A DNA stretch of 64,000 nucleotides from Candidatus Harrisonbacteria bacterium (GTDB taxonomy: Bacteria; Patescibacteriota; Minisyncoccia; UBA6257; 1-14-0-10-44-23). The stretch covers positions 290,965 through 354,964 of the forward strand of contig JAHFLF010000001.1 in NCBI GenBank assembly GCA_023255625.1, read 5' to 3'. Both the position numbers and the translations under genes were made by a program. Numbering within the stretch: the first letter of the stretch is position 1; each line of letters starts with the position of its first letter. Under the pieces are notes generated by a model. It made no database searches, was not told the origin of the DNA, and was given only the letters and a program-made list of their open reading frames with translations. Positions 5,428-50,617 of the stretch are shown here, piece after piece.

Positions 5428-5660
5428 AGAAGTTCCTGAAGTACTTCCTGCTCGCGCTCGTAGCTTCTGCGGTGGCGTACACCGTTCGGGCTGAAGAGCT
5501 CGACTGGAATTGGCAGTTCAAGGTCGTGATGTTCGATCGCATCAGGCCAGGGTCACTGGACCCAAGCTGGTGTGGCTGGACTCACATGGCCGTCTGGAAT
5601 CTCTTCATCGCTTGGTGGTACTACACCTACGAATGGAAGAGGCCCCATCGGTTGTGGTGA
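5424..5660 (+). CDS. small secreted/membrane protein (78 aa), Trp-rich
   Basis: ATG overlaps the upstream stop (ATGA). Preceded by AGAGGTGA. Signal-like N-terminus. Confidence 0.5.
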   Translation: MKKFLKYFLLALVASAVAYTVRAEELDWNWQFKVVMFDRIRPGSLDPSWCGWTHMAVWNLFIAWWYYTYEWKRPHRLW

Positions 5661-5698
5661 TGGAGTTTTAATCAACGGACCGCAAAGAGGTGCTAAAC

Positions 5699-6844
5699 AT
5701 GGATATCAAGCAGGTAATGAAGAGGCATGCGTACCAGAACATGCCGCTCGGATACGATGCTGCGTACGAGTTGGGCATGTTGGCACTGCGTGGGTGTGCC
5801 GGAGACCCACTCGCACAGATCCAGAGCATCGTTGCGCTCTCTGCACTGCACACGCGTGCGACCTATCACGCGGCGGATGACGCCGCCGCGGAACAGATCG
5901 CCGGTGTCTGCGCTACCGTCTTTGATCACGACATCGCGACCTCTACGCTCGGCTTCATCGAGCCGGTCGGGGATGTGATGGACAACTGCGGGATGGGTGG
6001 GGACCTGGTTGTGACGGCGAATGTCTCGACCTTGGCCGCACTGATCGCCGCTGCTGGCGGAATCCGAATGTGCAAGCACGGATCGCCAGCGAATGCCGAC
6101 GGTGGTCGACACGGCAGCTCTGACTTCATCGATCTACTGGGCATAGAACGCTGCCCAGAGGTGGGAATGGTCGAACGCTGCGTCGATGAACTCGGCTTCG
6201 GCTACAGCGAGGCATTGGATACACGCTACAAGCGAATCCACTGCCAGACACACGAGGTAGCGCAACTGCCGCACATGAATGACATCATCGGCCCGGTCAC
6301 CAACCCGGTCCGTCCGACCAAGCTGAAGAGGCGCGTACTCGGCATCAACCACCTTATCCCGCCACGGGTGGTCGCCAAGGCGTTCAGAATTCTCAACACT
6401 CGCGGTATCACCGTGGTCACGCATGGATTGTTCGTTCGCGGATTCACCGATGACAGAACGAGCGCATCCGGCATGGACGAGGTTTCAATCTGTCAGGCCG
6501 GCACTCTTGTCGCTGAACTGAAGGATGGAGAGATCACGGAATACTGGCTGACCGCTGAAGACTTCGGTCTGAAGTCGGTCGCAAGCGCCGCAATCTCGCC
6601 GGCGTCGGGCATGTCAAAGGGGGAATTCTCAATGCGCATCTTGTGCGGCGAGATACAGGGACCCCCGCTGCAAATGGTTCTTGCCAATGCAGCGCTCTTG
6701 TTCAAACTGAACGACCCTGCGCTCACTTACCCGGAGGCGTATCAACGGGCAGAACAGATTCACCGCGACAAGCTCGACCAGAACATCGCCACAGAAGTGG
6801 CTCGGCTCATCCCGAGTCAGAAGGGAGCAATGTGTCTCAACTGA
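5699..6844 (+). CDS. glycosyl transferase family 3 protein, anthranilate phosphoribosyltransferase (TrpD)-like
   Basis: MDNCGMGGD...KHGSPANADGGRHGSSDFIDLLGI resembles the TrpD GTGGD/KHGNR region. ATG at 5699 preceded by AGAGGTG. Substrate unknown. Confidence 0.5.
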   Translation: MDIKQVMKRHAYQNMPLGYDAAYELGMLALRGCAGDPLAQIQSIVALSALHTRATYHAADDAAAEQIAGVCATVFDHDIATSTLGFIEPVGDVMDNCGMGGDLVVTANVSTLAALIAAAGGIRMCKHGSPANADGGRHGSSDFIDLLGIERCPEVGMVERCVDELGFGYSEALDTRYKRIHCQTHEVAQLPHMNDIIGPVTNPVRPTKLKRRVLGINHLIPPRVVAKAFRILNTRGITVVTHGLFVRGFTDDRTSASGMDEVSICQAGTLVAELKDGEITEYWLTAEDFGLKSVASAAISPASGMSKGEFSMRILCGEIQGPPLQMVLANAALLFKLNDPALTYPEAYQRAEQIHRDKLDQNIATEVARLIPSQKGAMCLN

Positions 6845-7668
6845 CGAAGAAAAATGTGGGCATCATGATCGACTACGACGGGGTCGTCGTGTTGCAAACA
6901 ACGCAGCGGCCCACCTGTGACCCCAAGGCGATGTTCGAGCGACTCGCCCGAGCAGGGGTGATCATCATCCCGAACTCTGACACGCCAGTGGATCGTCTCA
7001 TGAGAAACTTCGAGGAAGCTACCGGCATCAAGCCAGCGCACCTCGTCGCAGAGCGCGGAGCAGTAGTCGTGAGCGAAAAAAAGCGCCACTACTACAAGCC
7101 CCAAGGCGACTTGTTCAAGCAGTACCGCAGTGCAATACAAGAAGCGCTGACCAGGGCCGGCATCGAAGTACTCATCAATGATGCGGCGAACTGGGTGCGC
7201 GATGTCCGTACGCATACACCCAACAGTCGCATGGCAATTCTCGACGGCATGCGCGAACTAAGCTTTTGCGCCTTCTTCCGGAGGACTGACGAATCCGGAG
7301 GGCCGTACATCGACCACGAATTCATGCAGGACTGCCTGCACGTCATCGACACCGTGGAGCCGCCAGTCGAGATCGAGAGGCAGACGGACAAATGTTTCGG
7401 GATCATGATCGGTAGCATTCCCGGAGTGAGCAAGACTACCGGTTTCCGGATTCTGCGTGATCTCTTCCGTGAGCCAATGCAGTGGTACATGATTGGAGAC
7501 GGCGAGGGCGACCTGATCGACGCAGATGAAGTAACGCATTGCGCGGTCGGCAATGCACAAGACGCACTGATCCACCGATGCGCGTTCCGAGCAAAACATT
7601 CGTACACCGACGGATTGCTCGAATGCCTCGACTGGATCAGCGCAAAGGAGAATCTATCAGAGCACTAG
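6832..7668 (+). CDS. HAD-superfamily hydrolase (Cof-like)
   Basis: IMIDYDGVVV (HAD motif I DxDG) and MIGDGEGD near the C-terminus. Likely GTG start at 6832 after AAGGGAG. Overlaps the end of the upstream gene. Confidence 0.55.
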   Translation: MSQLTKKNVGIMIDYDGVVVLQTTQRPTCDPKAMFERLARAGVIIIPNSDTPVDRLMRNFEEATGIKPAHLVAERGAVVVSEKKRHYYKPQGDLFKQYRSAIQEALTRAGIEVLINDAANWVRDVRTHTPNSRMAILDGMRELSFCAFFRRTDESGGPYIDHEFMQDCLHVIDTVEPPVEIERQTDKCFGIMIGSIPGVSKTTGFRILRDLFREPMQWYMIGDGEGDLIDADEVTHCAVGNAQDALIHRCAFRAKHSYTDGLLECLDWISAKENLSEH

Positions 7669-9499: not shown

Positions 9500-9706
9500 A
9501 TGCCGCCGTACATGGGGAGTATCGATGGGTCGACTAACGGCGAGCTGCCAAGGCGTTGCTCGCACTGGCCGACTTCTGAGGGTCGTGTCCCGTGCAACAA
9601 CTGCAACGCCTCGATCGGTTGCGGGCAGCCGCACTTCAAATGGCAGTGCGCGGAGTGCAAGCAATGGTTCTGCGTCAGGCCCGACCAATTTGGTCGGGAC
9701 GGGTAG
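9500..9706 (+). CDS. small Cys-rich protein (CNNC...C...CAEC), possible zinc ribbon
   Basis: ORF in GC-rich block. Start uncertain (ATG at 9446 or 9500). Several CxxC pairs. Confidence 0.35.
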   Translation: MPPYMGSIDGSTNGELPRRCSHWPTSEGRVPCNNCNASIGCGQPHFKWQCAECKQWFCVRPDQFGRDG

Positions 9707-9784
9707 TGCGCAAGCCGGCGCGAGCTTCAGGGAGCGTTCGCTCCCGCTCGCGCCGGCCAGAGTTCTTTCCGAGAAGGAGATGCG

Positions 9785-10273
9785 ATGTCGAAAGAGACGC
9801 TGACTCACCAGTTGTTCGCGTTGCAGTGCGGCATGGTCTTGAGGGACTACGACAACCCGATCGAGGACTCCAAGCGGCAGGAGATCAACGTCTCCGATGC
9901 CATCGCTCCGGAAGACCTCGGGTGCGGGATCTTCTTCGAGTTCCCCGGGATGACAGACGAACACGCCCCGAAGGCACTCCGCGGCCAGCAGTTCCTGGCG
10001 GTGGCAGTGCTCGAAAAAGACCGCGTGTTTGTGTCGACGGTCATCGATCCCGACACTCATCGCGAGAAGGGACTCAAGCTCGCAGCCCTGATGTTCGGCC
10101 GGTTCACTCGTCCGTCGGCCGCAAGGCTGGCGAACCCGGACAGCATCTGGCAGTGGGCGGCTCGATCCTCTCGGGCCAGCCTCGACGGCTACGAGAGCGC
10201 CGAGGTGATCGCTCGCGAGACGCCGTGCCACTGCGGGCGCATGCATGCCCCGGCGAACTGCTGGGCGACCTAG
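9785..10273 (+). CDS. hypothetical protein (162 aa)
   Basis: ATG preceded by AAGGAGATGCG. Overlapping ORFs in other frames lack an SD. Confidence 0.5.
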   Translation: MSKETLTHQLFALQCGMVLRDYDNPIEDSKRQEINVSDAIAPEDLGCGIFFEFPGMTDEHAPKALRGQQFLAVAVLEKDRVFVSTVIDPDTHREKGLKLAALMFGRFTRPSAARLANPDSIWQWAARSSRASLDGYESAEVIARETPCHCGRMHAPANCWAT

Positions 10274-10276
10274 CAG

Positions 10277-10843
10277 ATGCACGACACCCTCGGCATCATC
10301 GCTGGCATCCTGACGCTCGCTGGGTTTATCCCGGCGGGCGTCGGGGCAGTACGCGGACCAGTTCGCCCAAGCAGAGCGACTTGGCTCATTTGGGCGGTGG
10401 AGGCCATCTTGATCTACAAGACCTTCGCCGCCGCAACTCCAGACTCAAGCGCTCTCTGGATCCCGCTTGGATTTACCGTTGGAGCCGCAGGGATGTTTCT
10501 CCTGTCTGTTCCGTTCGGTGAAGGCGGGTGGAGCACGCTCGACAAGTGGTGTCTGGCAGGCGCAGGTGCCACGATCATCTTCTGGCACCTCGTTGGACCT
10601 GTCGCTGGACTGCTCGCCGGTATCGCCACCGACATGATCGGAGCGGTGCCGACGGCGGTCAAGACATGGAGAGATCCGAAGAGCGAGAGTCGTGCGCAGT
10701 GGTTGCTTTGGTGGCTCGGTGCCATCTTCAACCTCTGTGCGATCAAGAACTGGCAATCCGTGGAGGCGGCGTATCCGCTTTACGGATTTGTTCTGACAAC
10801 CACGATGGCCGGCGTGATTGCCGGCAGAAGGAATGGTGTCTGA
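10277..10843 (+). CDS. multi-pass membrane protein, paralog of the 46542..47126 product
   Basis: Shares TWLIWA..., K(T/S)W(R/Q)DP(K/W)SE and NLC(A/S) motifs with the AT-rich paralog. Confidence 0.5.
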   Translation: MHDTLGIIAGILTLAGFIPAGVGAVRGPVRPSRATWLIWAVEAILIYKTFAAATPDSSALWIPLGFTVGAAGMFLLSVPFGEGGWSTLDKWCLAGAGATIIFWHLVGPVAGLLAGIATDMIGAVPTAVKTWRDPKSESRAQWLLWWLGAIFNLCAIKNWQSVEAAYPLYGFVLTTTMAGVIAGRRNGV

Positions 10844-11238
10844 TGCCGCCGTATCTGAGAGAGCTTCCGACGTGGTATGGAGATCCGCCGCCGCGTTGTC
10901 AGCACCCCCACCAAAAGCCATCACGTTCGCGTTGCTCATCGTGTGGCTATCCGGGCATCGAGTTCGTCTGTTCGAAGTGCGAAGAGAAGGTCAAATTCGT
11001 ACCAGACGAGCGACGCAAAGAACGCAAGAGTCCTCCAAAGGGCAAATGCGTCTATGAGCACAAAAGCGCCTGTCGCCATGACGGGAAGCTCTATCCGGAT
11101 CGGTGCTTCCATTGCGAGTGCGTGACGATGAAGTACAAGTGCACCACATCTAAAACCTTCATCGAGTCCTCTCGTGGTTCGCCCAACGTCGAGAGGGAAC
11201 CGGGGAAAGGCGAGTTTTCGGGAGCTGAGAGTTATTAG
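10843..11238 (+). CDS. Cys-rich protein (131 aa) with several CxxC motifs
   Basis: ATG overlaps the upstream stop (TGATG). CSSC, CSKC and CFHCEC motifs. Confidence 0.45.
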   Translation: MPPYLRELPTWYGDPPPRCQHPHQKPSRSRCSSCGYPGIEFVCSKCEEKVKFVPDERRKERKSPPKGKCVYEHKSACRHDGKLYPDRCFHCECVTMKYKCTTSKTFIESSRGSPNVEREPGKGEFSGAESY

Positions 11239-17960: not shown

Positions 17961-18689
17961 ATGGACATTGAAACTGGTTTAAAAAATCTCGGCCTAAAAA
18001 AGTCAGAAATTGCGGTGTATCTATACCTTTTGCGCGCCGGCGCCTCTACGCCGCCGATGATTGCAAAGGGGACGGGAATAGCGCGCACCAACTGTTATCG
18101 CGTACTTACGGCGCTACACGAGAAGGAACTCATCCAAACACAGCCGCTACGCAAACGCCGGGCCTATTTTGTGCGCGACCCGGAGTCATTAGTTTCCGGA
18201 CTGGAGCGAAAAACAGAGTTTGCCCGTCAGATTGTGCCGGAGCTGCGGGATTTTTATACAACGCAAAAAAATAAACCGAAAATCCGCTTTTTTAGCGGCT
18301 GGGAGGAGGTCAAAGAGGTGTTTCGCCTAACACTTGAGGCCAAAAAATTGTTTGCGCTTGGATCAACTGAGACGCTAGCAAAGATTGACCGTAAATTTAT
18401 GGAGTGGCACTGGAACGAGATGCAAAAACGAAAAATTATCTTTGACGACATCCTAACGGCCGATGCAAAAGGGAAAACTGCAGAAGAAATCAAGAGCATC
18501 CGTGGCGCGCTCCAGACCGTCAGATTTCTGCCAGAACAATTCGGCGACCAACCCATGGACATCTTTATCTGGGACGACAATATCGCCTTTATGGCGCTTA
18601 GCGAGCCAATCTTCGCCACGCTCATCACCGACGCGCCGCTCGTCAAAGCAATCAAAATCATGCACCGGGCGCTGTGGGAAAAACTTTAG
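17961..18689 (+). CDS. TrmB-family transcriptional regulator (paralog 1 of 5)
   Basis: N-terminal wHTH (EIAVYLYLLRAGASTPPMIAKGTGIARTNCYRVLTAL) and TrmB-like C-domain. Paralogs at 23945, 33303, 49865 and 61190. Confidence 0.6.
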   Translation: MDIETGLKNLGLKKSEIAVYLYLLRAGASTPPMIAKGTGIARTNCYRVLTALHEKELIQTQPLRKRRAYFVRDPESLVSGLERKTEFARQIVPELRDFYTTQKNKPKIRFFSGWEEVKEVFRLTLEAKKLFALGSTETLAKIDRKFMEWHWNEMQKRKIIFDDILTADAKGKTAEEIKSIRGALQTVRFLPEQFGDQPMDIFIWDDNIAFMALSEPIFATLITDAPLVKAIKIMHRALWEKL

Positions 18690-23944: not shown

Positions 23945-24730
23945 ATGATAATGAGTGAGTGGCAAATACCACCACTCAATAGATATATGTACCAAGAAAT
24001 TCTTGAAGAATTAGGTCTATCGCAAAATGAAGCGAAGATCTACGAAGGCCTGATTGAAATCGGCCAGGCTTCGGTACCGGAAATATCCCTGAAAATAGGA
24101 GTTCATAAGCGTAATGTGTACGACATTATCCCCAAACTTTTAAAACGCGGCCTGATATATCAGATTGCGGATAGCAAGGAAAATACCTATGCTCCGGTCG
24201 CGCCGAATAAACTCTCTGACCTAGTTTGGGAAAAAGAAACAAAACTCAATAGCATTCTTCCAGGGCTCAATAGACAATTTAAAAAAGCCGCAACAGAAGA
24301 AGCGGTGTACATCTATAAAGGTGTTGAGGGATTTAAAAATTATCTTCGCGACATCTTAGCCACAGGGGAAGACGTCTTTTTTATAGGAGCTAAAGGAGGA
24401 TGGTTTGACGCTGACTTGCAAATTTTCATTAAAAAATTCTTAAAGCAAGCTCGCGAAAAAAAAATTAAATATCACCATATTTTTGATGCTGAAGTGAAAA
24501 CGCTGGCTCCCGACCTATTAAAAGCATTGGGGCAGCCATATCGTTTTTTACCGCCGGAATATTCCACAACCGGCGCTATCGATATCTTCGGAGACCATAT
24601 TGTAACCTTCTCTGGGCTAACGTTAAAAAATATTACGGAAGATGCAACTCTGGTCGTGATACAGAATAAAGAATTGGCGGATTGCTACCGAACCTGGTTC
24701 CGGTTTATTTGGGACCATTGCAGAAAATAA
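23945..24730 (+). CDS. TrmB-family transcriptional regulator (paralog 2)
   Basis: wHTH (EAKIYEGLIEIGQASVPEISLKIGVHKRNVYDIIPKL) and TrmB C-domain. Confidence 0.6.
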   Translation: MIMSEWQIPPLNRYMYQEILEELGLSQNEAKIYEGLIEIGQASVPEISLKIGVHKRNVYDIIPKLLKRGLIYQIADSKENTYAPVAPNKLSDLVWEKETKLNSILPGLNRQFKKAATEEAVYIYKGVEGFKNYLRDILATGEDVFFIGAKGGWFDADLQIFIKKFLKQAREKKIKYHHIFDAEVKTLAPDLLKALGQPYRFLPPEYSTTGAIDIFGDHIVTFSGLTLKNITEDATLVVIQNKELADCYRTWFRFIWDHCRK

Positions 24731-26888: not shown

Positions 26889-26902
26889 GCGCAACACACA
26901 AA

Positions 26903-26932
26903 AACCGCCGAAAGGCGGTTTTTGGTTGAAAT
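26903..26932 (+). terminator. rho-independent terminator AAAACCGCC-GAAA-GGCGGTTTTTGG
   Basis: Perfect stem with GAAA loop and T-tract. Confidence 0.65.
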
Positions 26933-27275
26933 GACAATAAATGATTGGAATAAGTGAGAAGCGCAGATTTTGATGCAGTTCTAGGCGCGGGAGGGCGGTT
27001 TGTGAGCCGTACTTTTATATAAGTACGGTGAGCAAACCGACGGGACCCGCAACAACGAACTGCTCAAAATATGCATTTCTCACACACAATAACTCTGTAG
27101 TTGCCCCAAATTACGATTCCGGTTCTTGCGATTCCTCCGAAGGAGGATCCGCCTATGGCGGAAAAGTGTCGTGACTTAGAGCTCCACGACCAACACTCTT
27201 TTTCTATCAATCCAGTATATAAATATACTGAAGTGTCGCTTTTTCCTAATCTCCATTTACAGAGAAAGAAAAAAG

Positions 27276-29180
<1,905 letters not shown>

Positions 29181-29630
29181 TAATAAGTAATTTGAAATTC
29201 ATCTAGCCGAAGCCAGATGAATAACAAACACTCTTGTTTTGGGACAACTACACAATTATTGTTGCATACTTTATATCTGCTTGAAGGATATAAAGATTTT
29301 GATTTCCTAATCATTCATTTATCTTTATAGTTTTTAGTATCTTTCGATACAAACATTTTCAAAGAACGAAAGGTATACTCAATTCACTTTTTGAAGTGAA
29401 AATAATACACCCGTCTCGGCGACCTATCGTATGATCTGCAATACGACGACGAGACGGATGCGCTGGTCTGATATATGTTTTTCCGCCAGAGGCGGATCCG
29501 CCTTCGGCGGACAATTTGTACGAATTTCGCGGGATGTTTCGCTGGTTCGTTTGTACTGCCTTAAGCCAGTACTAATGTGGCTTCTAGTATAGTCGACCGA
29601 ATAATAAAGTCAAGACCTTATTAACGAAGC

Positions 29631-31021: not shown

Positions 31022-33331
31022 GTGTCATTTGAAAGACCATCGGAAAAGCCGCAGAGCGCCGAAAGAAGCGAAGGTGCAATTGAAAGGACGCGGCTTTTAG
31101 CGCAGCTGCAAGAGTTAAAAGCTCAACTACTAGCAAACGGAGGTCCTGCCCTAGTGGCCAAAGCCGCCGCTTTCATGGCTGGAGAAGTGACTGCGGCAAA
31201 ATTCTGCCGACGAAGCGAATTACTGCCTCAAGAAGAAGAGCTCCGTAGCACAGCAATTAATGCGCTCGTGCGAGAAGACATTATTAGCGGAGATCAAAAC
31301 CCTGATACCGGCGAGTTCGTGTTCGTCATTGACCCAACAAAAATCAATGGTATCAGCCGCGATAAGTTGCTGAAATACGTTGGTGGGATCGGATATGATG
31401 GCTCCGGCAATCAACTGAAAAAATCCGAAATAATTGCACGCATATTCCGCGACATCCAATCAATCACTCCGGGGCAGCAGGAAGAAGGAGACCTCAATCC
31501 CAAACCATTCCTATATATTCCAAAAAACGCAAAGGACGCGCTTGACCCGGCCAAAATCAAAAAAGCAGAATTTCAAACGACGCTCTGGGACATTGCCGGA
31601 AATAAAGAAGATGGTAATGAGGAATACCCTGTTGCCGATGGTCCGGGGGCCAATGCGCTTGAGACTCGTCTCGCGACGATTATCTTCCATCCGTCATACG
31701 GTGATGGATATCGCGATAAAAGCGGCGTTCTTCTGGTTCGTGATCCGGCCACGCGTGAGTACAAAAAATTCTCTACCGGCACCTTGAGTGACTACAATAT
31801 CAGCGGAACTCGACTTAGTGTTCGCGGCGGCAAGGTTGTACGCAGCAGTCGCCAAGGCCTTGCAGAGATGGCTCCCAGTCTCATCCGGAACGGCGCTCTG
31901 CGTAAAGAAGATTTAATGGCTATTAGAGGTACAAAAACCGGCGTCTATGACAGACGCCCCTCAAAACGAGGTATTAAAAAGTTAGTCATGTTTAACGGGG
32001 TGCGACACTATGTCGGCCCGCATGCCGAGGGTGCGGCGGCCGTACTATTAAGCCCGACAACCGCCGGCATTATAGAAAAAGATGCCTCCGGCAAAGAAAT
32101 GCTGACGCGAGTCTTCAATGCCTTTGATTCAAGCCAATTTGAATTGAAACAAAAGGAAAAGTTCCATGATTCAGGAGTTGATGAAACAAAACCCCGCCCG
32201 TTTGACCTTGCAGAATTTAGCGGCCCTAAAAAAGATGGCGAGTCAGAAGAGCTGTATGCAAATCGCCGCGCAGTCGTAGACTATGTTGAATTCATGAAAA
32301 TAAAAGATGATCTTGCGAAAATAGGTATTCCGGTTGATTCCGGCAATATTGAAACCGAAACCAACCTTGCCCGCGCTGTGCGTATCCTGTCGCAGACAAA
32401 TCGCTATGAAATATTTCTTGCCTTTGCAAAGAAAACGGGCGAATCCGGTATAGCTGCCATCATAACCGCCGGAGATGACGCTCCGTATGTTGAAGCAATC
32501 CTGAAAATTGGCGAGAAATTATCGGCCGATAAGGCACGCGAATTTTTTGAAGAAACCGACCAAGAGAAAATCTTAGAATCTCTTCATGAAAACTCCGGCG
32601 ACAAAACAATCGTAGCACTTCGAGAAAACATTAGGCGTACAAACAGAGAGCTATTCATCCGTTGTGCGGCGAGCGAAACAGCGATCAAAAACCCGCGCGA
32701 AACTAAAAAGATACTCGACCGCGCGAAAGCGGAGATTCGGCTGTTTGAAAATATGCTCCGAATCATTGAAGAAACTGAACAGCTACCGTCAGAATATCTC
32801 CGCGGAACTGAAATGGCGATTACTGAAACCGGCGAACTCTCCGACCTGGATCTTGCGAACATGCTTAAGCAATTTGAGGAGACTCGGAAAAATGACCTGG
32901 ATGAAAAGGGGAAGCCGATTTACGATGCTGAACATCTTGAGGGCCTCGTACAAGATTTCAAACAAAAACTAGAAAATCCCAAAGCGCGATTTTATACTGT
33001 TCGCCAAGGTGGCGCCATCATTGCCTTTGTTCGCTTTGAAGACCTACCGAACGATCATGTCTACGCCGGATCATTCACGACAAGCAAAGATTTGCGCGGC
33101 GAAAAGCTCGGCTCCGCGCTCATGCGAACTGCGTTTGCACAAGAAAACGCCGACAGAACCCTAGAGGCAATTGTTTTTTCCGGAAATCCACGGCTGATGG
33201 AATACCATACTCAAAAGCTCGGCCACGAAATCCATTATGACCAGCCACTCAAAATCGGCGGTGCGTTGTATTACCGGATGACTCGCGAGCCGCGCAAGCA
33301 AGCTACGGTTTCGCTTGGGGCGGCCGCATAG
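31022..33331 (+). CDS. large hypothetical protein (769 aa) with a C-terminal GNAT-like acetyltransferase fold
   Basis: The C-terminal IIAFVRFEDL...RGEKLGSALMRTAF resembles GNAT motif A. About 650 N-terminal residues are unrecognised. Start uncertain (GTG at 31022). Confidence 0.5.
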   Translation: MSFERPSEKPQSAERSEGAIERTRLLAQLQELKAQLLANGGPALVAKAAAFMAGEVTAAKFCRRSELLPQEEELRSTAINALVREDIISGDQNPDTGEFVFVIDPTKINGISRDKLLKYVGGIGYDGSGNQLKKSEIIARIFRDIQSITPGQQEEGDLNPKPFLYIPKNAKDALDPAKIKKAEFQTTLWDIAGNKEDGNEEYPVADGPGANALETRLATIIFHPSYGDGYRDKSGVLLVRDPATREYKKFSTGTLSDYNISGTRLSVRGGKVVRSSRQGLAEMAPSLIRNGALRKEDLMAIRGTKTGVYDRRPSKRGIKKLVMFNGVRHYVGPHAEGAAAVLLSPTTAGIIEKDASGKEMLTRVFNAFDSSQFELKQKEKFHDSGVDETKPRPFDLAEFSGPKKDGESEELYANRRAVVDYVEFMKIKDDLAKIGIPVDSGNIETETNLARAVRILSQTNRYEIFLAFAKKTGESGIAAIITAGDDAPYVEAILKIGEKLSADKAREFFEETDQEKILESLHENSGDKTIVALRENIRRTNRELFIRCAASETAIKNPRETKKILDRAKAEIRLFENMLRIIEETEQLPSEYLRGTEMAITETGELSDLDLANMLKQFEETRKNDLDEKGKPIYDAEHLEGLVQDFKQKLENPKARFYTVRQGGAIIAFVRFEDLPNDHVYAGSFTTSKDLRGEKLGSALMRTAFAQENADRTLEAIVFSGNPRLMEYHTQKLGHEIHYDQPLKIGGALYYRMTREPRKQATVSLGAAA

Positions 33332-34100
33332 ACAAATCAGCAGCCACAAACGGTTGCGCCTTTTCCCATTGCGCCTCAAACAGTGTTCGGTGCATCTGGC
33401 TAATGTATGGATCATCAATAATCACGCCGATGCGGCCGCGCTCATTAAAGCTCAAAAAACTCACTTTATTTTCATAAATTTGTACGATACTGCTAAACGG
33501 AACTTGCGGCGGCGGAATGAGGCGGATAGAGACAATCTGTTTGCTTAATTTTTCTTGGAGCGAACGAATATATTTTGTGTCCGGGCCGATAATCCGTTTG
33601 TGGATGCCGCGTTTTACGCGCTCATTAATATACCGCGCATTTTCTGCCGGTAGATACTTGTCCATAACCTCGTGATCAAGATAGGTTAAGACCTCCCCAC
33701 CTGAAACAAGCGTATCATCAGCCAAAATCCTGATTGCGCTATCGCCCTCGTAATACTGCACACCCGGCTTACCGGAAATCAAATTAAAATCTGATGTTAA
33801 GTTGGCGATAATGCCGCCGAGCGCCTCTTGCGCGACTTTGGCCGATTGCTCTTTCTGCTCCGCAAGCTCTTTCAGCCGAAGCGGATGCGTCGGCTCAAAG
33901 CGCAATACTTTTGCCTTTGTATTTTTTGCGACTAACCCGAGCGCAACGAGCTCATCGAGCACCTTGTAAGTGAGCCCGCGCTTGAGTCCTGATTTTTCGC
34001 TGATTTCACCAGCGGCAAGCGCGCCGTGCTTAAGCAACACCTCGTAAATTTTGGCCTGATCAGCGCTCAATCCGGCTTTAGATAAAGTTTGTTCGTACAT
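33303..34100 (-). CDS. TrmB-family transcriptional regulator (paralog 3)
   Basis: wHTH (QAKIYEVLLKHGALAAGEISEKSGLKRGLTYKVLDEL) and TrmB C-domain. Confidence 0.6.
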   Translation of the reverse strand: MYEQTLSKAGLSADQAKIYEVLLKHGALAAGEISEKSGLKRGLTYKVLDELVALGLVAKNTKAKVLRFEPTHPLRLKELAEQKEQSAKVAQEALGGIIANLTSDFNLISGKPGVQYYEGDSAIRILADDTLVSGGEVLTYLDHEVMDKYLPAENARYINERVKRGIHKRIIGPDTKYIRSLQEKLSKQIVSIRLIPPPQVPFSSIVQIYENKVSFLSFNERGRIGVIIDDPYISQMHRTLFEAQWEKAQPFVAADLSMRPPQAKP

Positions 34101-35913: not shown

Positions 35914-36168
35914 TTAATGCTGGGTCAAGCTTTGCCGCAAACGGAGTTTTAACTTCGCCAGCGCCCAGCCATGGTACTTAAGTTGCTTCTCGCGCTCTCG
36001 AGCGTCAGCTTCAACGCGATAGGCCTCGTAGTATATCAGTTCCCACTTATGCCCTCGCGTAGAAAAAACCTTGCCGTTGTTATGTGCGGCAAAGCGAACT
36101 CGCAAATCGTTTGTACTTCCAGTGTACAACTCATTGAGTTCATTACGAATTACATAAACATAATGCAT
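35914..36168 (-). CDS. GIY-YIG nuclease superfamily protein (YhbQ-like), second copy
   Basis: MHYVYVIRNELNELYTGSTNDLRVRFAAHN carries the GIY-YIG motif. Flanked by inverted ACCCAGCACTAACTT copies. Confidence 0.65.
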   Translation of the reverse strand: MHYVYVIRNELNELYTGSTNDLRVRFAAHNNGKVFSTRGHKWELIYYEAYRVEADAREREKQLKYHGWALAKLKLRLRQSLTQH

Positions 36169-36300
36169 GCAGTGATTCTATCACTGCATGCAGGCAAAAG
36201 TTAGTGCTGGGTAAATAGAAACGAATTGTGAGTAGGCGATACTCGGGGATTATATACCGGAGTGCCTATCAGCAACGTTCGCGGATTCCTGTGATTGAAT

Positions 36301-36447
36301 GATTCTCCCTTTCCTAAAGGGAGTACTCCGACGTTACGTCGGAGGGAGGGATTTAAGTCCTCCAAAAAACCAATTGATTCGCAGACCCGGCTTTTCTTAT
36401 TCTCCCTTTCCTAAAGGGAGTACCGCCACTAGGCGGGGAGGGATTTT
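36301..36447. repeat. two tandem REP/MITE-like elements (36301-36355 and 36396-36447) at the left border of the largest GC-rich island
   Basis: GATTCTCCCTTTCCTAAAGGGAGTA-CTCCGACGTTACGTCGGAG-GGAGGGATTT and CTTATTCTCCCTTTCCTAAAGGGAGTA-CCGCCACTAGGCGG-GGAGGGATTTT. The central hairpins differ but keep their pairing. Confidence 0.8.
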
Positions 36448-36594
36448 CTCTCTTCTGCAAAAGCCGGATAAGCGAGTCCGTTGATCGCGCACAAGGTGTG
36501 CGCGGAAGCGAACTCAACTCGTGCATCTTAATGGTAGAGATGCAGCAGAGTAGGATTTTCCCCCTAGGCGAAAAGGGGAAAGGAGAAATATACC

Positions 36595-37326
36595 ATGCGT
36601 CGTAATCCAGAAAGTTGCGTTGCGCGCGCCCTGCGCGCGCAGGGCGACCTCGCGAAGCGCGAGGCGGCCCAGAAGGCCGCGGCGGCTCGTGCCGCCGCGG
36701 AAGCTCGGCGGAGCGCCCTGCTCCGCGAGCACTCCGTCCTCGCCAGTTGGCGGGGCGGGTTCGAGGAGGCGGCACGCCGCTTCCTCCTGTGCGCCGCCAA
36801 AGGCGGCGCATTCCACGCGGACGCCGCCGCCTGGCTCGCCGGTCTCTCCGAGGGAGTGGTGGTCTCGGGCTGGGATGTCCAGCGCGCTGCCACTTTGATG
36901 GTGGCCGAGACCGAGGCGCTGGAAGCCGTCGGTAGCATCCGCCGCGTGCCGCGTACGCCGGCAGAGCTCGATGCTCTGCTGACCGCGGCTTGGCCGGTCG
37001 CGGTCGCCCGGGACGGGCGGACCGAAGGATACAACGGCCCGGCCAACGGTTTCGACCGTTGGAACGGGCAGTTGACGCCGCCCGAGGGGAAATCCTACCT
37101 CGGTGGCGAGGTCGCCGACGCCGGCTTCGTCTGGAACGCGGGTGGGCGTTCCACCCCCGGACTCCGTCCGCTCGCGGACGGTCGGTGGGAAGTGTTGGTC
37201 GCCGTCCCGCGGTGGTACCTGGAGGGGGACTCGACGGCGCTCAACGCCGTCGGGGGCTACTGCTCCATGGGCGCGCCGCTCCCGCGGTCCCAGTGGGACT
37301 GGCGCTGCGAGCCCCTGCGCTCGTAG
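36595..37326 (+). CDS. hypothetical Ala/Arg-rich protein (243 aa), island gene 1
   Basis: AAAGGAGAAATATACC before the ATG. Overlapping alternative-frame ORFs are probably GC artefacts. Confidence 0.5.
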   Translation: MRRNPESCVARALRAQGDLAKREAAQKAAAARAAAEARRSALLREHSVLASWRGGFEEAARRFLLCAAKGGAFHADAAAWLAGLSEGVVVSGWDVQRAATLMVAETEALEAVGSIRRVPRTPAELDALLTAAWPVAVARDGRTEGYNGPANGFDRWNGQLTPPEGKSYLGGEVADAGFVWNAGGRSTPGLRPLADGRWEVLVAVPRWYLEGDSTALNAVGGYCSMGAPLPRSQWDWRCEPLRS

Positions 37327-37723
37327 TCGCCACCCCTCACCCGTTTTGAAGCAACGGGAACGATGAGGTAACGCTTCAAGAGAGGAGGTGAGTCGTAAGG
37401 GGTCTTTTCATCCTGGTTTTCGCCATCAAGCAAAACCAAGGAGTTTTCGGGAATCAGTCCCGACGAGTATCAGCTTCTGAGCGGCTGATACTTTAGAATG
37501 GTTAGCTCTTCGCGCTGGTGGGGGAGGTCAGACTCGTTCTGATCTCTCCCCACCGCAAATTTTATGAATTCGTATCAGGATTTTTCTGGATTCCCGCTTT
37601 CGCGGGAATGACAGACAGAAAATTGATATGAGTTCGTAAGGTACGGGCTCAAGAATCACTACCACGCGTTGCTGTCATGGGCAGCGCGTTGGTTTCGCCC
37701 TGACGGGCAATTGGAGGTTTACC

Positions 37724-38212
37724 ATGACCGAGCCGACATACACAGGGGAAGCGATGAGCTTTCGGAAGCGGCTGCCGGAGCCGCTGGCTGGGTTGGTCCG
37801 AGACCTCTCGGACCAACGGACACGGTTCGCCGCGTTCCAGTTCTCCGGGTGGCTGATCGGCGCCTTGGAGGCGGTGTCCCCCCGGAAGTTGGTTCCGGGG
37901 CCGGAGTACATCAAGGACGAAAAGGTCAACGCCAGGCGGGAGCTGGCGTTGTCGGCGGCACGGAGTGCACACGAACTTCTCGAGTGGTACCAAGACATGG
38001 GCTGCAGGGGGCGCCTGTGGGTATCTCGTCTTCTCCCCACGCGCGCCGAGTATGGGAACATCTCTGCCTCCCTGAGGGACGGCATGGAATTCCTCCGTCA
38101 GGAGGATGTCGTCGTTGCGCTCAATCGCGCGATGGAAGAGGCGAAGAATGCCTCGGATCAGGAGGTTGACCTCCCTGCGCGCAAGAAGGAGAGATTCGCT
38201 CGGCCGAGCTGA
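37724..38212 (+). CDS. hypothetical protein (162 aa), island gene 2
   Basis: TGGAGGTTTACC before the ATG. Confidence 0.5.
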   Translation: MTEPTYTGEAMSFRKRLPEPLAGLVRDLSDQRTRFAAFQFSGWLIGALEAVSPRKLVPGPEYIKDEKVNARRELALSAARSAHELLEWYQDMGCRGRLWVSRLLPTRAEYGNISASLRDGMEFLRQEDVVVALNRAMEEAKNASDQEVDLPARKKERFARPS

Positions 38213-38544
38213 CCGAGCGGCGTAAAAATACCAGAATGGCTCTCTGGCAGTGAGTTAAAATCCAGTAGCTCATGCGAATGTAATCCGCTCATCGGATACT
38301 GGTTCAGCGTGCGAACAAGACTCGCGCACGCTGGAAAGGGTTTCAGGAGTCAGCCTTGGTGAGGGGTCGGCAGCGATGTCGGCCCCTCCCAGAAAAACTG
38401 CGTATTCGCGGGTGGAAGTTTCAAACGGAAATTTTTACGCGCGAGTCCGTTGTAACCGGATTCGAAAAGAGAAAACCGCTATCGCATCCTTCGTGGTAGG
38501 AGGTGCGATGAGCTTCGTCCTTCGGGACAAAAGGAGTGACTACC

Positions 38545-38865
38545 ATGAGTCTAAGGGGAGACGACAGCTATCTCGGACCATTCCACCGTCAGCGCACCCC
38601 GGCCGAGGCGGCGGCTGACGCGCCGCATGAGCTCCTCCGGAAGCAGGAGCTTGACGCCGCCGAAAGGATGTACCGCGCGGCGACTGCGGCCGAGTCGCCG
38701 CGGAAATCCAGGAGTGTCGTAGATCTCCTGGATCAGGGCTGCGCGGCGACTGCGGCGGAGAGGGAGTACCTCGCCGCCCGACATCGGGCCGAGAGACGCT
38801 TCGGCAACCGGAACATCCCGGGGGCTGACGGAGGGCCGGGTGGTGGCCAAACGCCCGACGCGTAG
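38545..38865 (+). CDS. hypothetical protein (106 aa), island gene 3
   Basis: AAAAGGAGTGACTACC before the ATG at 38545. Confidence 0.5.
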   Translation: MSLRGDDSYLGPFHRQRTPAEAAADAPHELLRKQELDAAERMYRAATAAESPRKSRSVVDLLDQGCAATAAEREYLAARHRAERRFGNRNIPGADGGPGGGQTPDA

Positions 38866-39156
38866 CCGGGCAGGTCAGCCGAAAACGCCGGGTTAGCCAC
38901 CGGCGTAAATATTCCCAGAGTGGCGCTCTGGGCTGGATGACAAAATACACCCTGTCATCCTGTGGGTTTCTCCGGCGCTGTTAAACGCCGGTGATAAGGG
39001 TAGCGCGTGGCGGAGGAGTGGGAAGACCCCACCCTCCGCCGCACAAAATTCAAACAAAGATTTTTGCGATGGACATTTACATTATGCGTTCCTGGGGACG
39101 CTTGGTCTATCGCAGAAACCTCTGCTTGAAAGACAGCTGGGGAGAAAGAGTGGTTT

Positions 39157-39375
39157 ATGGAGCTGTGGGAGGTCAGTGTCACAGTCCTGTCACCAAGGAG
39201 GGGGACTGTGAAGGCAGAGGTGAAGTCTTCCGAGGCAGAAGTTCTAGATCTTTGCAGAAATTACCCTGCAAGGTATTTAGGACTTAAAATTTCCGTGGCG
39301 AAGATGGAGTCAGAAGGGGTTCAGTGTACTGACCCGCTCTTCTGCGTCATCGACATATCCCCGGGAGGTGATTAA
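39157..39375 (+). CDS. hypothetical small protein (72 aa), island gene 4
   Basis: GGGGAGAAAGAGTGGTTT before the ATG. Confidence 0.4.
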   Translation: MELWEVSVTVLSPRRGTVKAEVKSSEAEVLDLCRNYPARYLGLKISVAKMESEGVQCTDPLFCVIDISPGGD

Positions 39376-39386
39376 TCCGCGTCCTG

Positions 39387-39770
39387 ATGATCACGGGACG
39401 GTTCGCTGGTCAGGTGCGGGAGATCCCGCCGACCACCGACCCGATGGAGCTCTTCGGCTTCTGCGCCCGGGAAAACTGGGCGTGGGAGGTGGAGTGGGCT
39501 TCGGCAACGAGCACACAGGAGAAGTTCGTCTGGGGGCGTGCTGACATGGTCGGCCGTTGCCTGCGAGCGCTCCTGCATGGCCGGCCGGTTTTCCTCAGCG
39601 GTAAGAGATATGCCGCCAAAGGAACCGATGCGGCTGGCGTAGTTGCCGGACAGCTCGAAGACGCCATCGTTAATTCCGGCACCAACGTTCGCGTTGGCTC
39701 AGATGACGAGGATGGCGTCGTCATTGAGCTCTGCTCGGACGAAGAGCCCGGCAGTTCTGCGCGCAACTGA
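39387..39770 (+). CDS. hypothetical protein (127 aa), island gene 5
   Basis: GGGAGGTGA upstream. Acidic C-terminus. Confidence 0.4.
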   Translation: MITGRFAGQVREIPPTTDPMELFGFCARENWAWEVEWASATSTQEKFVWGRADMVGRCLRALLHGRPVFLSGKRYAAKGTDAAGVVAGQLEDAIVNSGTNVRVGSDDEDGVVIELCSDEEPGSSARN

Positions 39771-39849
39771 CAAAGCGCGCTATCTCAAAACCTCTGCTTG
39801 AAACACAACGGAGGAGAAAGGTTAGCCGTTGCGGAACCGGAGGGCTAAG

Positions 39850-40137
39850 ATGGAGCGGCTACGAAAAGTAGCCGCAAAACTGTGTCTGAGAGTTCGACTC
39901 TCAGAACAGTATTGTGTCAGCTACGACACAATCATGCGGTTCGACAGGGTAGTTCACGCGGAAGGCGTGAGATTTATCCTGGCGTTTCCAGGGAGCGTAG
40001 TTGCGGTCTTCTTCAGCAGTAAGACGCTTTGGTCAATTGTTGAAGAAGCTGGCGCCCTTTTGGCGGTATACGATAGCGTTGACACTATCAACCGCCTTCT
40101 TAAGGAAGAGGAGGAAGAGGAGGAATTGGAGGGATGA
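39850..40137 (+). CDS. hypothetical protein with poly-Glu tail, island gene 6
   Basis: CCGGAGGGCTAAG before the ATG at 39850. Ends with EEEEEEELEG. Confidence 0.4.
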   Translation: MERLRKVAAKLCLRVRLSEQYCVSYDTIMRFDRVVHAEGVRFILAFPGSVVAVFFSSKTLWSIVEEAGALLAVYDSVDTINRLLKEEEEEEELEG

Positions 40138-45317: not shown

Positions 45318-45675
45318 CTGGTGCCGCGGGTCAGAATCGAACTGACAACCACTTCCTCTTCCAAGGATATTCTCTGCATTACTGCAAAGTTTGGACTATA
45401 TCATCTCCCCAGAGGGGAGTCGGGCGCTATCTGCGAGGTTATTGTTGGGACTCACTCGCTAGTCTCTACACCTGCCTCCGCTAAAGCTACTGCAGGCAAG
45501 CCTTCTTCAACGATTTGGCTTGCTTGCAATCCGTAGCCTCCCGGCGAAGGATTGGCTCGGGATTTTCCTCTCACAAGGAGTTCCCCCGAATTCACCCAAT
45601 TATTCAATCCATATTACTATGGAAGGCCCCAAAGAGTTATCAATAGGGAAATGCTCTACCATTGAGCTACCGCGG
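45318..45675 (-). tRNA. tRNA-Phe (anticodon GAA) interrupted by a 283-nt group I intron between U33 and G34 (exons 45644-45675 and 45318-45360)
   Basis: Exon 1 GCCGCGGTAGCTCAATGGTAGAGCATTTCCCT. Exon 2 GAAGAGGAAGTGGTTGTCAGTTCGATTCTGACCCGCGGCACCA. Intron carries group I R-like (TAGAGACTAG) and S-like (GATATAGTCC) elements, a GGGG internal guide, and ends in G. Confidence 0.7.
45361..45643 (-). mobile_element. group I intron within the tRNA-Phe anticodon loop, with no homing-endonuclease ORF
   Basis: See the tRNA-Phe entry. The 5' exon ends in U and the 3' exon follows a G. Confidence 0.6.
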
Positions 45676-46377
45676 CAGCGGCGCGAACTGCTTCAAACCC
45701 TCAATCCACCCCATAATTTTATAGAACAGTTGAGTATTGTTGATTCTAATTTGAATGACCCCAAAAGGCAAGCGATTAAAGGGTCTTTTACCTTTGCTAG
45801 ATAAACTTACGAAAATATGCACTTTGCCAAAACGACTCTTGGGAATCTTAGTAATCTTTGACCAATAACTAATTGCTTCATCTTCTTGAATATGTTTAAA
45901 GATTCTTAAATCTGCAGTGATCTTTTCTTCTGGTACATTGCAAATCTCGCGGATAAATCTTAGAAACATCTGCACCAACAACGGATCAGAATTTGTAAGA
46001 CTTATTGAGTGTGCTGTTATTTCACGACCCTTAACTTTTCTCACTCTTTTATAACCTTCCGCCCAGTAAAGCGCGATTCCGACAATAAACAAATTTTCTC
46101 TTGATACCTCACGAATCTCAGATTGAGCCAATTCCAAAATATCATCTCTCCGCTTAATGGCTAGGGCTGTCTGCTCCTTATTTCTTTTTATAAAACCAGC
46201 AAGGGATTTTTCGCGGCTCCGGACTGCAATTTTTTTCCGGGCCTCATCAGAAAGGGGAACTTCTTTCAACCATAAAGAAAGGGTTGATTTAGAAATCCCT
46301 AGCAACAGTTTTTGAATCTGACCATAACTCAGACCTTCTAACCTCAACTGAATCGCACGATTTTTATCTTTCCTCAT
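45667..46377 (-). CDS. hypothetical HTH-domain protein (236 aa) immediately upstream of, and slightly overlapping, tRNA-Phe
   Basis: N-terminal GLSYGQIQKLLGISKSTLSLWLKE HTH. Basic. Function unknown. Confidence 0.45.
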   Translation of the reverse strand: MRKDKNRAIQLRLEGLSYGQIQKLLLGISKSTLSLWLKEVPLSDEARKKIAVRSREKSLAGFIKRNKEQTALAIKRRDDILELAQSEIREVSRENLFIVGIALYWAEGYKRVRKVKGREITAHSISLTNSDPLLVQMFLRFIREICNVPEEKITADLRIFKHIQEDEAISYWSKITKIPKSRFGKVHIFVSLSSKGKRPFNRLPFGVIQIRINNTQLFYKIMGWIEGLKQFAPLPR

Positions 46378-48202: not shown

Positions 48203-48301
48203 ACCCGTGAGTGTATATTCTTTTCGTCAAAAACAAAACCGCTCGTCCACAACCTTGGTAGATCGGGACGAGCGGGTACTGCTTCGTTCATGGGGCGGGA
48301 A

Positions 48302-49669
48302 CTACCGTTCAAAAGACGCGTGCCGATTGATGAACTGTGCAATCTTACGGCCGAGCCACCATCTCGGCACGGGCACGAGCGGACTCGTACGGCAGAGTCG
48401 GAACGGGGTCAGGAGCAAGACAATAAGAAGATAGGCGATGTTCGCGCGCCACCGTTGCGGCCAGAGCGGGTGCGTCTCTTTGCAGGCGAGCATTGTATAG
48501 TCGAGCCGTATGAGCAACTTGGGATTCTTGCGAAACTCCTCAACCTGGGGATTGTCGTCTGGCCACTCACCGCTCGGCGTGTATGCCCTGGCGCAATAGG
48601 GACGTATGACCACGCCTCGCAGAGCGTGGCGAAACACGAAACGAAGCGTCAGGAAAACATCGCGAAACATATCGGCTGGGAAACCGACAACGGTGAGCAT
48701 CTCCGGCTCAATACCCGCCTCCTGCATCAGTCGCAGAAACTCCTCCGCTTCAGACAGCGTGTTGTGCCCCTTGTTCACACGACGGAACGCCGCCTCACTC
48801 CCACCGTCAGCCCCGAACCCGACAGTCTCAAGTCCGTACGACCGAAGTCGCGTTGCTAGCTCGAGATCTTTCCTGCACTCACGAACCGTCCACTTGGAGG
48901 TGGCAAGACCGCGCAGGTGCAAGACGATGCCGTGTCGCCTCGCGATTCGACTCACAGCAGCAAGACACAGTTCAAGCTTGTCAACGCTCTGAAAGACATC
49001 AAGGTTGGTCAGGTAGGCCGTGAAGGTAGAGTGACCAATAGAGACGAGGGACGAACAGATGTACTCCACCTCCTCCTCGAGCGCACGCAAGCTTCGGTAC
49101 TGCTCCGGCCGATTCTTCGCGGCCGCACAAAAGCTGCAATTGAACATGCAGCCGTTCGCTAGAAAGAGCGCGAACTCGCTAGTGAGATATAGGCGGCGCT
49201 GCGCCTCCGTCAGTTGCATGAGCATCCGCACCGACGAGGTGTCGAAGGCGGAACGCAGACTGCCCGGTGCAAGATCGAGGGCCTGCTCGCATGCCTGATC
49301 CGTCGTCACGGGAACAACCTGACCAAGCCGACTGAACCAGTTCGTGAAATCAGCGGGGCAATGCAGGTTGTTGATGCCCTCGCCTCCCACAAGCACAAGC
49401 TGCTGATACCCCATGAAGCGCACTCTCGCAATGTCGCGCATAACATCAGGGATGTAAGGCGTGCCAATCACGCTCCAACCAACGAAGTTAGAGCGGTCAA
49501 GCTCTGATCGAACTTCTGGCGACTCAAGGTCGGTGTGGTTCAGGTCAAAAAACGAAACCTCAATACCGGCCTCAAGCAACCGACTCCCGAGATTCATAAG
49601 ACCTCCCGGGAGATACGTCTTAACCCGACCGTGCGGGTAGCGCGGCTCAAATAGGGTAATACGACGCAT
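48302..49669 (-). CDS. radical SAM domain protein
   Basis: CMFNCSFCAAAKN (CxxxCxxC). N-terminal region could be a B12-binding-like domain. GC-rich. Confidence 0.6.
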   Translation of the reverse strand: MRRITLFEPRYPHGRVKTYLPGGLMNLGSRLLEAGIEVSFFDLNHTDLESPEVRSELDRSNFVGWSVIGTPYIPDVMRDIARVRFMGYQQLVLVGGEGINNLHCPADFTNWFSRLGQVVPVTTDQACEQALDLAPGSLRSAFDTSSVRMLMQLTEAQRRLYLTSEFALFLANGCMFNCSFCAAAKNRPEQYRSLRALEEEVEYICSSLVSIGHSTFTAYLTNLDVFQSVDKLELCLAAVSRIARRHGIVLHLRGLATSKWTVRECRKDLELATRLRSYGLETVGFGADGGSEAAFRRVNKGHNTLSEAEEFLRLMQEAGIEPEMLTVVGFPADMFRDVFLTLRFVFRHALRGVVIRPYCARAYTPSGEWPDDNPQVEEFRKNPKLLIRLDYTMLACKETHPLWPQRWRANIAYLLIVLLLTPFRLCRTSPLVPVPRWWLGRKIAQFINRHASFER

Positions 49670-49864
49670 GGCGCTCTCCTTTTGGGTGGACTTACATTTT
49701 CAGTTGTACTACGGGAACTTCCCGTAACCTAGGTTTTCGTAGAATACGCGATAGATTGGTTATTGTCAATGCCTTATGGCGTAAATAACCCTTATTTAAT
49801 AAGGGTTAATAGGATTTCGTTAAAGCCACTTGACACAATATTTGCTATGCGCTAGAATGAATTT

Positions 49865-50617
49865 ATGAAAAAAATAACTAAAACCATAGCCGGATTATCG
49901 GCTCGCCAGACAGAGGTTTATTGTGTTTTATTAAAACTAGGAAAGGGGACTGTTGCCGAGGTCATGCGCGAGGCAAAGATGAACCGCACAACCGGTTACA
50001 GTGTTTTAGATTCACTGGTTGGCAAAGGGCTCGTGACGATTTCAGGGAAGGAGCCAAAGCAGGAATATGTCGCTGAATCACCAGACAATTTACTCAAGTA
50101 TCTGAATCATGAGGCAGAGGAGGCGCAGGCGCGAGCCAAAGAAGTTGAAAATCTAATTCCAGAATTAAAATCTATCCACAATGTTGCCGGCCGGCCAAAG
50201 GTGATGTTTTATGAGGGCGAGGAGGGGCTGGAGCGCGTTTATGAAGACACGCTGACCTCGCATGAGCCAATTCGGGCGTATGCCAATTTTGAGGATGCAA
50301 CAAAAACACTGCCTCACTACTTTCCGGAGTATTTCCGACGCCGTGCAGAGAAAAGAATTTCAATCCGCGGCATCGTGCCCGACAACCTTGCGGGCCGCCA
50401 AAATGCAGAGCGCAACCGGGAAGAATTGCGCGAAATGGCACTTGTGCCGACAAATAAATATTATTTCTCTCCAGAAATCAACATCTACGACGACAAAATC
50501 ATGATCGCTTCATGGAAGGAAAAACTTGGTATCATTATCCAAAGCAAAGAAATCGCTGATGCGATGAAATCTATCTTTGAGCTCGCCTGGGCAGAAGCTA
50601 AGCGTCTATCTCGCTAA
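49865..50617 (+). CDS. TrmB-family transcriptional regulator (paralog 4)
   Basis: wHTH (QTEVYCVLLKLGKGTVAEVMREAKMNRTTGYSVLDSL) and TrmB C-domain. Confidence 0.6.
   Translation: MKKITKTIAGLSARQTEVYCVLLKLGKGTVAEVMREAKMNRTTGYSVLDSLVGKGLVTISGKEPKQEYVAESPDNLLKYLNHEAEEAQARAKEVENLIPELKSIHNVAGRPKVMFYEGEEGLERVYEDTLTSHEPIRAYANFEDATKTLPHYFPEYFRRRAEKRISIRGIVPDNLAGRQNAERNREELREMALVPTNKYYFSPEINIYDDKIMIASWKEKLGIIIQSKEIADAMKSIFELAWAEAKRLSR

Follow-up and report, generated by a model that had tools for sequence, protein, structure and literature searches.

Loss of the anti-Shine-Dalgarno (anti-SD) sequence from the 3' end of 16S rRNA is rare. Among about 20,600 taxids surveyed, 128 had no consensus anti-SD, including Bacteroidetes, Mycoplasma, Carsonella and Hodgkinia, mostly endosymbionts together with some Bacteroidetes, and organisms of this kind were generally without SD motifs and never had a matched variant SD (Amin et al. 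2018, PMC6107228). The anti-SD CCTCCT was also reported to be detected in just 48% of Parcubacteria 16S, overlapping with the group that lacks uL1; the main text of that paper scores the presence or absence of CCTCCT, and a replacement is not described there (Tsurumaki et al. 2022, RNA 28:1041, PMC9297842). In the 'blind' ribosomes of Bacteroidia, CCUCC is kept and hidden under bS21, bS18 and bS6 (PMC7797042, PMC13000453).

In this study, a 16S rRNA locus within a window of 64 kb (the whole stretch of DNA analysed) was found to be a further case in the anti-SD-less Parcubacteria set already reported by Tsurumaki et al. 2022. It shares with that set the phylum-level group (by FtsH), a 16S with large insertions, the disappearance of CCUCCU after helix 45 and a loss that is clade-wide rather than confined to one genome; it differs in having a same-length AUUAAAC tail in five lineages, together with CUUCC variants and a relative with a canonical tail. 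As in the bacteria of Lim 2012 and Amin 2018 (some Flavobacteriia, Mycoplasma, Carsonella and Hodgkinia; PMC6107228), an intact helix 45 is followed by a non-CCUCC tail, and genes without SD are accompanied by no compensating variant SD; unlike them, the locus belongs to a different phylum, comes from no insect endosymbiont and, with a GC of 49% for the window overall, is not extremely AT-rich. While the Hodgkinia tail drifts freely, the replacement tail here is conserved between species, and in contrast to the sequestered anti-SD of Bacteroidia the sequence itself is gone, no CCUCC being present in the tail. We saw no earlier description of a conserved replacement tail of the same length, of CUUCC variants or of a long trailer with this much structure, and we regard these as modest additions.

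The window belongs to a cellular genome, encoding FtsH, RecA, class II ribonucleotide reductase, ThyA, bL25, a sigma-70 factor and seven tRNAs. The rplK-rplA region, with the uL1 gene, lies outside it. FtsH is 64-73% identical to its best named relatives (Candidatus Harrisonbacteria, Patescibacteria group and (Candidatus) Paceibacterota) and up to 84% identical among metagenomic proteins, which would place the organism in the Parcubacteria (Paceibacteria, CPR) near Candidatus Harrisonbacteria, a placement by the similarity of one protein rather than by phylogeny. The 16S gene is full length and bona fide, with a recognisable helix 45 that is paired and has a GGAA loop (Table 1), and has large insertions, a trait typical of CPR, and at the 515 region the CAGCAGCAGCGG variant, which we take to be another. 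16S genes of CPR bacteria are rich in insertions and introns. Four insertions were identified here, of 39 nt, 140 nt, 115 nt and about 160 nt, and each of the three large ones forms an almost perfect hairpin (z -9 to -12), so that the large expansion segments with tandem micro-repeats described in an earlier reading made from the sequence only (the sequence-only reading) are real; that reading was also correct that no 23S follows the 16S, no 23S rRNA match being obtained by Rfam search anywhere within the 64-kb window. Insertions 2 and 3 have a repeat family (AAGTTCATCAAGT) in common, with 7 of the 8 window copies lying in these two, as well as a 29-nt stretch that is 90% identical; they resemble paralogous hairpin elements that may be mobile. 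At the site of insertion 3, the related locus L044 has a different insertion. The gene is probably the sole copy in its genome (about 0.6 Mb, of which the 64-kb window was covered).

Table 1. Coordinates of the 16S rRNA gene, its insertions, its 3' end and the flanking precursor elements in the window
Feature	Position	Strand	Basis
Processing stem, 5' strand in 16S leader (AUGCAACAAUAAUUGUGUAGUUGUCCCAAA)	29238..29267	-	cofold and duplex with 27110-27071
16S rRNA gene with four insertions	27274..29184	-	Rfam SSU_rRNA_bacteria RF00177, 1372.6 bits, model positions 1-1533
Insertion 1, 140 nt, hairpin arms 4x AAUUUUC with 4x GAAAUUA	28828..28967	-	model alignment, fold z = -9.2
Insertion 2, 115 nt, hairpin with AAGUUCAUCAAGU-type repeats	28446..28560	-	model alignment, fold z = -9.8
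Insertion 3, about 160 nt, hairpin, repeat family common with insertion 2	about 27617..27775	-	fold z = -11.8
Spurious 79-aa ORF within the 16S gene	27376..27615	-	
Helix 45, CACGCGUAGC-GGAA-GCUGUGCGUG, intact, GGAA loop	27287..27310	-	alignment to SSU model
13-nt 3' tail GGAUCAAUUAAAC, in place of GGAUCACCUCCUU, without CCUCC core	27275..27287	-	3' alignment to model
Structured 3' trailer of pre-16S, about five hairpins	27111..27274	-	fold; two hairpins homologous in L042
GGAUCCUCC-UUCG-GGAGGAAUC hairpin with CCUCCUU, this lineage only	27130..27150	-	sequence, fold, comparison with relatives
Processing stem, 3' strand (UUUGGGGCAACUACAGAGUUAUUGUG...GCAU)	27071..27110	-	cofold and duplex, -39.9 kcal/mol

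Alignment of the 3' end to the Rfam model confirmed that the anti-SD is absent from the place where it belongs: beyond an intact helix 45, whose stem has the same sequence in L037 and L042, the model consensus is GGAUcACCUCCUU and the window reads GGAUCAAUUAAAC, a 13-nt tail without CCUCC(U), as in the cases recognised by Lim 2012 and Amin 2018. Related 16S loci were found via protein homologues of the 79-aa in-gene ORF followed by contig retrieval, with L001 obtained via a pattern scan. Nine such loci were retained (L001, L042, L043, L037, L040, L045, L039, L041 and L044), making ten with the window (W), and L038, an unrelated canonical bacterium, was left out together with L046 and L047, which end before the tail. 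The scan of the genome collection with GTCGTAACAAGG-N10-GGAA-N10-GGATCADD, in which the normal second gap would be N9, gave one locus, L001. When metagenomes were scanned with GTAGCGGAAGCTG-N{6,7}-GGATCA, a pattern one base longer than the window-type helix 45, 33 of 34 matches were chance hits in coding DNA, and in the viral contigs scanned the tail and helix 45 patterns had no match.

Table 2. Tails after helix 45 in the window and the nine related loci
Locus	Tail after helix 45
W (window) and L001	GGAUCAAUUAAAC
L042	GGAUUAAUUAAAC
L043	GGAUCAUUUAAAC
L037	GGAUUUAUUAAAU
L040	GGAUCACUUCCAU (CACUUCCA type)
L045	GGAUCACUUCCAA (CACUUCCA type)
L039	GGAACCAUUUACU (GGAACCAUUUAC)
L041	GGAAGUUCGAGAU (GGAAGUUCGAG)
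L044	GGAUCACCUCCUU, canonical (keeps CACCUCCUU)

CCUCC is missing from the tail in eight of the nine relatives (Table 2), a trait common to relatives and not a sequencing error, and on these comparisons we take anti-SD loss to be a feature of the clade. Four relatives (L001, L042, L043 and L037) carry an (A/U)UUAAAC or AUUAAAU tail, CACUUCCA is found in two, a further two end in different tails without CCUCC, and the last is canonical. Over 315 conserved columns of the 16S 3' domain, identity to the window is 90% for L042, 87% for L043, 87% for L037 and 89% for L044, and the conserved 3' domain differs by 10-13% among W, L042, L043 and L037, L001 having too little 16S for the comparison. With the window included, the AUUAAA(C/U)-type tail thus occurs in five lineages, and the bases right after it are unrelated (UUUUUUC, UACUACA, AAAAAGU, UAAAAAU and UUAUUCG). 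Since the tail is kept and the next bases are not, the mature 16S 3' end probably lies at or near ...AAAC, where conservation stops, which would give 13 nt as in the canonical tail; likewise, the retention of the tail across lineages 10-13% apart with unrelated flanks suggests constraint on the new tail, and hence some retained function, which our best explanation leaves unspecified. A bolder proposal, toward which we lean only a little and which we consider rather unlikely as a whole, is that GGAUCA-AUUAAAC is no decay debris but a functional module under selection at the 3' terminus of the 30S subunit in the Harrisonbacteria-related clade, and that with the CUUCC intermediates and the canonical-tail relative it marks a traceable, stepwise change, within a free-standing bacterial lineage, to initiation wholly independent of SD. 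The role of such a module might be to signal maturation or define the 3' end, to provide a platform for protein binding, or to tether A/U-rich leaders weakly.

Several observations were made on the relatives themselves. The tails of L040 and L045 read GGAUCACUUCCA, with CUUCC in place of CCUCC; this variant, one step away from the canonical core, may represent a stage in the decay of the anti-SD or may be able to pair with GGAAG. In L041 (3385-3420) a cold-shock-domain gene starts about 30 nt beyond helix 45 and has a perfect GGAGGA at SD distance, the L041 tail being without CCUCC. The 16S of L044, with its canonical CCUCCUU tail, has an intron (about 600-1390) that encodes a LAGLIDADG protein and is inserted between GAAGUCGU and AACAAGG, at about position 1506, just before helix 45.

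Downstream of the tail lies the hairpin sequence GGATCCTCCTTCGGAGGAATC, in which CCTCCTT occupies 27146-27140 on the minus strand, 135 nt after GGATCA, just where the sequence-only reading had placed it within a UUCG hairpin; in the trailer fold the CCUCC is fully paired with GGAGG under the UUCG loop. The trailer as a whole is strongly structured (27114-27274, minimum free energy -52.8 kcal/mol, z = -4.1 against shuffles), and two of its hairpins, UCGUGGAGC...GUCACGA and CGCC-loop-GGCG, are common to W and L042. CCTCCT occurs 53 times on both strands of the window, from which about 0.07 occurrences are expected on one strand of a 165-nt trailer, and the downstream hexamer is not beyond chance. 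A CRISPR-DR58 match that covers the hairpin, with E=0.064 and a score under the gathering cutoff, was dismissed because the window has no other copy of the sequence. A direct repeat, AAGAGUGUU(U/G)G, was also noted in the 16S leader (29224-29238) and in the 3' trailer (27189-27203), and GGUGU(U/C)G is found in the trailers of L037, L043, L001 and L044 as well; the AAGAGUGUU(U/G)G repeat may be a boxA-like antitermination element or a protein-binding element.

The trailer is bracketed by a long leader/trailer complementarity with energies of -39.9 kcal/mol in W, -37.9 kcal/mol in L037 and -44.6 kcal/mol in L039. The stems of these three loci differ in sequence and keep complementarity (UAGUUGUCCC/GGGGCAACUA, UAGUUAUCC/GGAUAACUA and UAGUUGUCCCG/CGGGACAACUA), so that changes on one strand are matched on the other across species, and the ..CAACUA 3' strand is also present in L001, L042, L045 and L044. 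In these respects the duplex resembles the bacterial RNase III stems of pre-16S, which likewise enclose the 16S in a long leader/trailer duplex, and it is the classic pre-16S processing stem, a presumed substrate of RNase III. In E. coli, the 16S 3' trailer up to the processing stem is 33 nt. The distance from the 16S end to the stem is longer here, about 60-190 nt among the relatives, and in comparison with usual pre-16S spacers the trailer is dense in hairpins; CCUCCUU happens to fall within one of them. RNase III, RNase J and PNPase are retained in CPR bacteria (PMC12641178), and since the hairpin lies inside the processing stem, it can be read as spacer within the precursor, which would be trimmed off during maturation.

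Translation initiation signals were surveyed by counting SD-like 4-mers at -20 to -5 of ATG-start ORFs of at least 100 aa, with starts assigned by a crude longest-ORF rule and genes divided into backbone (GC <0.53) and GC-rich (GC >=0.55). SD-like 4-mers precede 2 of 31 backbone genes, against a background of about 10% (window only), and 2 of 32 genes in the relatives' loci; upstream SD enrichment is therefore absent from these samples, which represent the window and related loci rather than a genome. Of the 15 GC-rich genes, 7 have the motif (Fisher p = 0.003 against backbone genes), and the leaders of the GC-rich genes pair with the canonical tail better than shuffles do (z = -2.9). Both the near absence of SDs on backbone genes and the SDs on island genes had been remarked upon in the sequence-only reading, and the counts bear them out. 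Backbone leaders are A/T-rich and G-poor, with T at -1 in 66%, and in about 9 of 35 genes a -10-like hexamer has its end 4-12 nt ahead of the ATG, which is no more than suggestive of leaderless or short-leader mRNAs for some genes. A ribosome of this kind would be unable to form the SD helix, and SD motifs would have been lost correspondingly from backbone genes; initiation would then be SD-independent, on A/U-rich, G-poor, unstructured leaders, with some genes leaderless or with very short leaders. By analogy with Bacteroidia, SD-independent initiation on A-rich, unstructured leaders seems the most likely working mode here. The SD motifs on GC-rich genes would be unexpected if SDs were useless, unless these genes were imported. 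Patches with a GC of 0.55-0.73, where the backbone has about 0.47, were noted at about 1-2400, 4700-7600, 9600-11200, 36000-40000 and 48300-49700, and their ORFs are mostly without Pfam match, some perhaps mis-called. One gene of these patches, encoding a radical SAM protein (48302-49669), is probably an old resident and not a recent import, because its 71% homologue lies on a 20,900-nt NCBI contig in a relative and an 84% FtsH homologue on an NCBI contig of that same length.

Taken together, we consider it likely that the lineage lost the CCUCC anti-SD core, that the same-length tail GGAUCAAUUAAAC took over, that the downstream CCUCCUU belongs to a lineage-specific trailer hairpin and is no displaced exon, and that initiation is SD-independent. 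The sequence-only reading had left the choice between a ribosome with no anti-SD and a 3'-terminal intervening sequence; the former gained support from the loss in eight of nine related 16S genes and the 2/31 backbone count, and the latter did not hold up. It supposes that GGAUCA (27282) and CCUCCUU (27146) are brought together by excision of the intervening 135 nt, and joining the two motifs does recreate GGAUCACCUCCUU, in a group whose 16S genes abound in insertions and introns, with three hairpin insertions in this gene, a LAGLIDADG intron near 1506 in L044 and a CCUCCUU located within the precursor and upstream of the processing stem. However, neither CCUCC nor CUCCU was found in any of the eight relatives without an anti-SD, over the 300 nt of downstream sequence recovered for seven of them and the 86 nt recovered for L043, so a conserved downstream exon is lacking there, and the hairpin is missing from the homologous trailer of L042, the nearest one. 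Intron families gave no match at 26900-27640 by cmscan at E<=1, the SSU and the sub-threshold CRISPR-DR58 being the only matches, and known self-splicing introns are, to our knowledge, all longer than 135 nt. Hairpin-type intervening sequences, as established for enterobacterial 23S, are excised without ligation; excision of this type would detach CCUCCUU and not join it, and the interval consists of several independent hairpins with no single helix closed at the insertion point. The CCUCCUU is moreover locked in a stable hairpin, and AUUAAAC, which would be intron under this model, is the part that is conserved. Given no intron match, relatives without the motif and a chance probability of about 0.07 for CCTCCT in the trailer, splicing of this kind is left without support beyond coincidence and is in our judgement highly improbable, and with the failure of a hidden, splicing-restored anti-SD the most surprising part of the finding is gone. 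Hardly more credible is an extended mature 3' end, in which the 30S keeps its trailer and the hairpin with CCUCC is opened for the SD-bearing GC-rich genes as a cryptic, conditional anti-SD. The good pairing of those genes' SDs with a canonical tail and the position of the hairpin within the processing stem agree with it, but the hairpin is unique to this genome, its CCUCC is entirely occupied by GGAGG, and the variation of the trailer in length among relatives is as expected for discarded spacer; we know of no precedent for a cryptic, conditionally exposed anti-SD in a retained trailer.

The other two alternatives concern the tail itself. A re-coded anti-SD, in which AUUAAAC pairs with a GUUUAAU-like A/U-rich motif of mRNA leaders as an alternative SD system, would agree with a tail that is conserved in five lineages when its flanks are not, and the leaders are A/T-rich, with TAATT, AATTT and ATTAA among the most enriched 5-mers. 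Nevertheless, the duplex energy of backbone leaders with the real tail is no better than that of shuffled leaders (z = +0.57), and k-mers complementary to the tail are no commoner in the leaders than same-sense ones (28 vs 30 for 5-mers, 8 vs 11 for 6-mers); with no excess of pairing or of k-mers, there is thus no sign of a re-coded SD. A helix of 6-7 bp made of A and U only would also be weak, and no variant anti-SD with a matching variant SD was found by Amin et al. (PMC6107228), so that we hold such a system to be improbable, if somewhat less so than the other alternatives. Metagenomic assembly of rRNA genes is difficult, and the analysis covered 64 kb of the genome, which might point to a misassembled 3' end or to a decaying copy with a functional CCUCC 16S elsewhere. 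Against this stand the same ORF and locus in three assemblies (the 79-aa ORF is on record on contigs of 601,890, 104,414 and 68,161 nt, from NCBI and two ENA assemblies), with the independent assembly L036 identical to the window base for base over the 16S 3' region, tail and trailer, which makes misassembly unlikely; the tail is also present in four other species, the gene matches the full model at 1372 bits and has helix 45 intact, and one rRNA copy is reported as usual in CPR bacteria (PMC9297842). An artefact or pseudogene therefore deserves very little credence, and loss of the anti-SD with a replacement tail remains the preferred explanation. Parcubacteria offer a large environmental clade for the stepwise study of a rare loss, with canonical, CUUCC and AUUAAAC tails side by side in this locus and its relatives, and SD use should not be assumed in this lineage by gene callers, in RBS-based start prediction or in the heterologous expression of CPR genes.

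Other features were noted elsewhere in the window. A tRNA gene at 45319-45676 (minus strand) has its anticodon loop broken by a 283-nt group I intron (Rfam RF00028 match at 45372-45644, 60.9 bits), and ARAGORN finds this tRNA with the intron option alone, calling it 'Asn(att)', an uncertain identity given that the anticodon depends on the splice site. At 3137-3598 (plus strand) lies a LAGLIDADG_1 homing-endonuclease ORF with a GC of 0.37, outside any detected rRNA gene or intron. In addition, four regulators that are paralogous to one another are encoded within 32 kb, at 17961-18689, 23945-24730, 33303-34100 and 49865-50617; they are about 240-265 aa long and all carry a TrmB domain at the N terminus.
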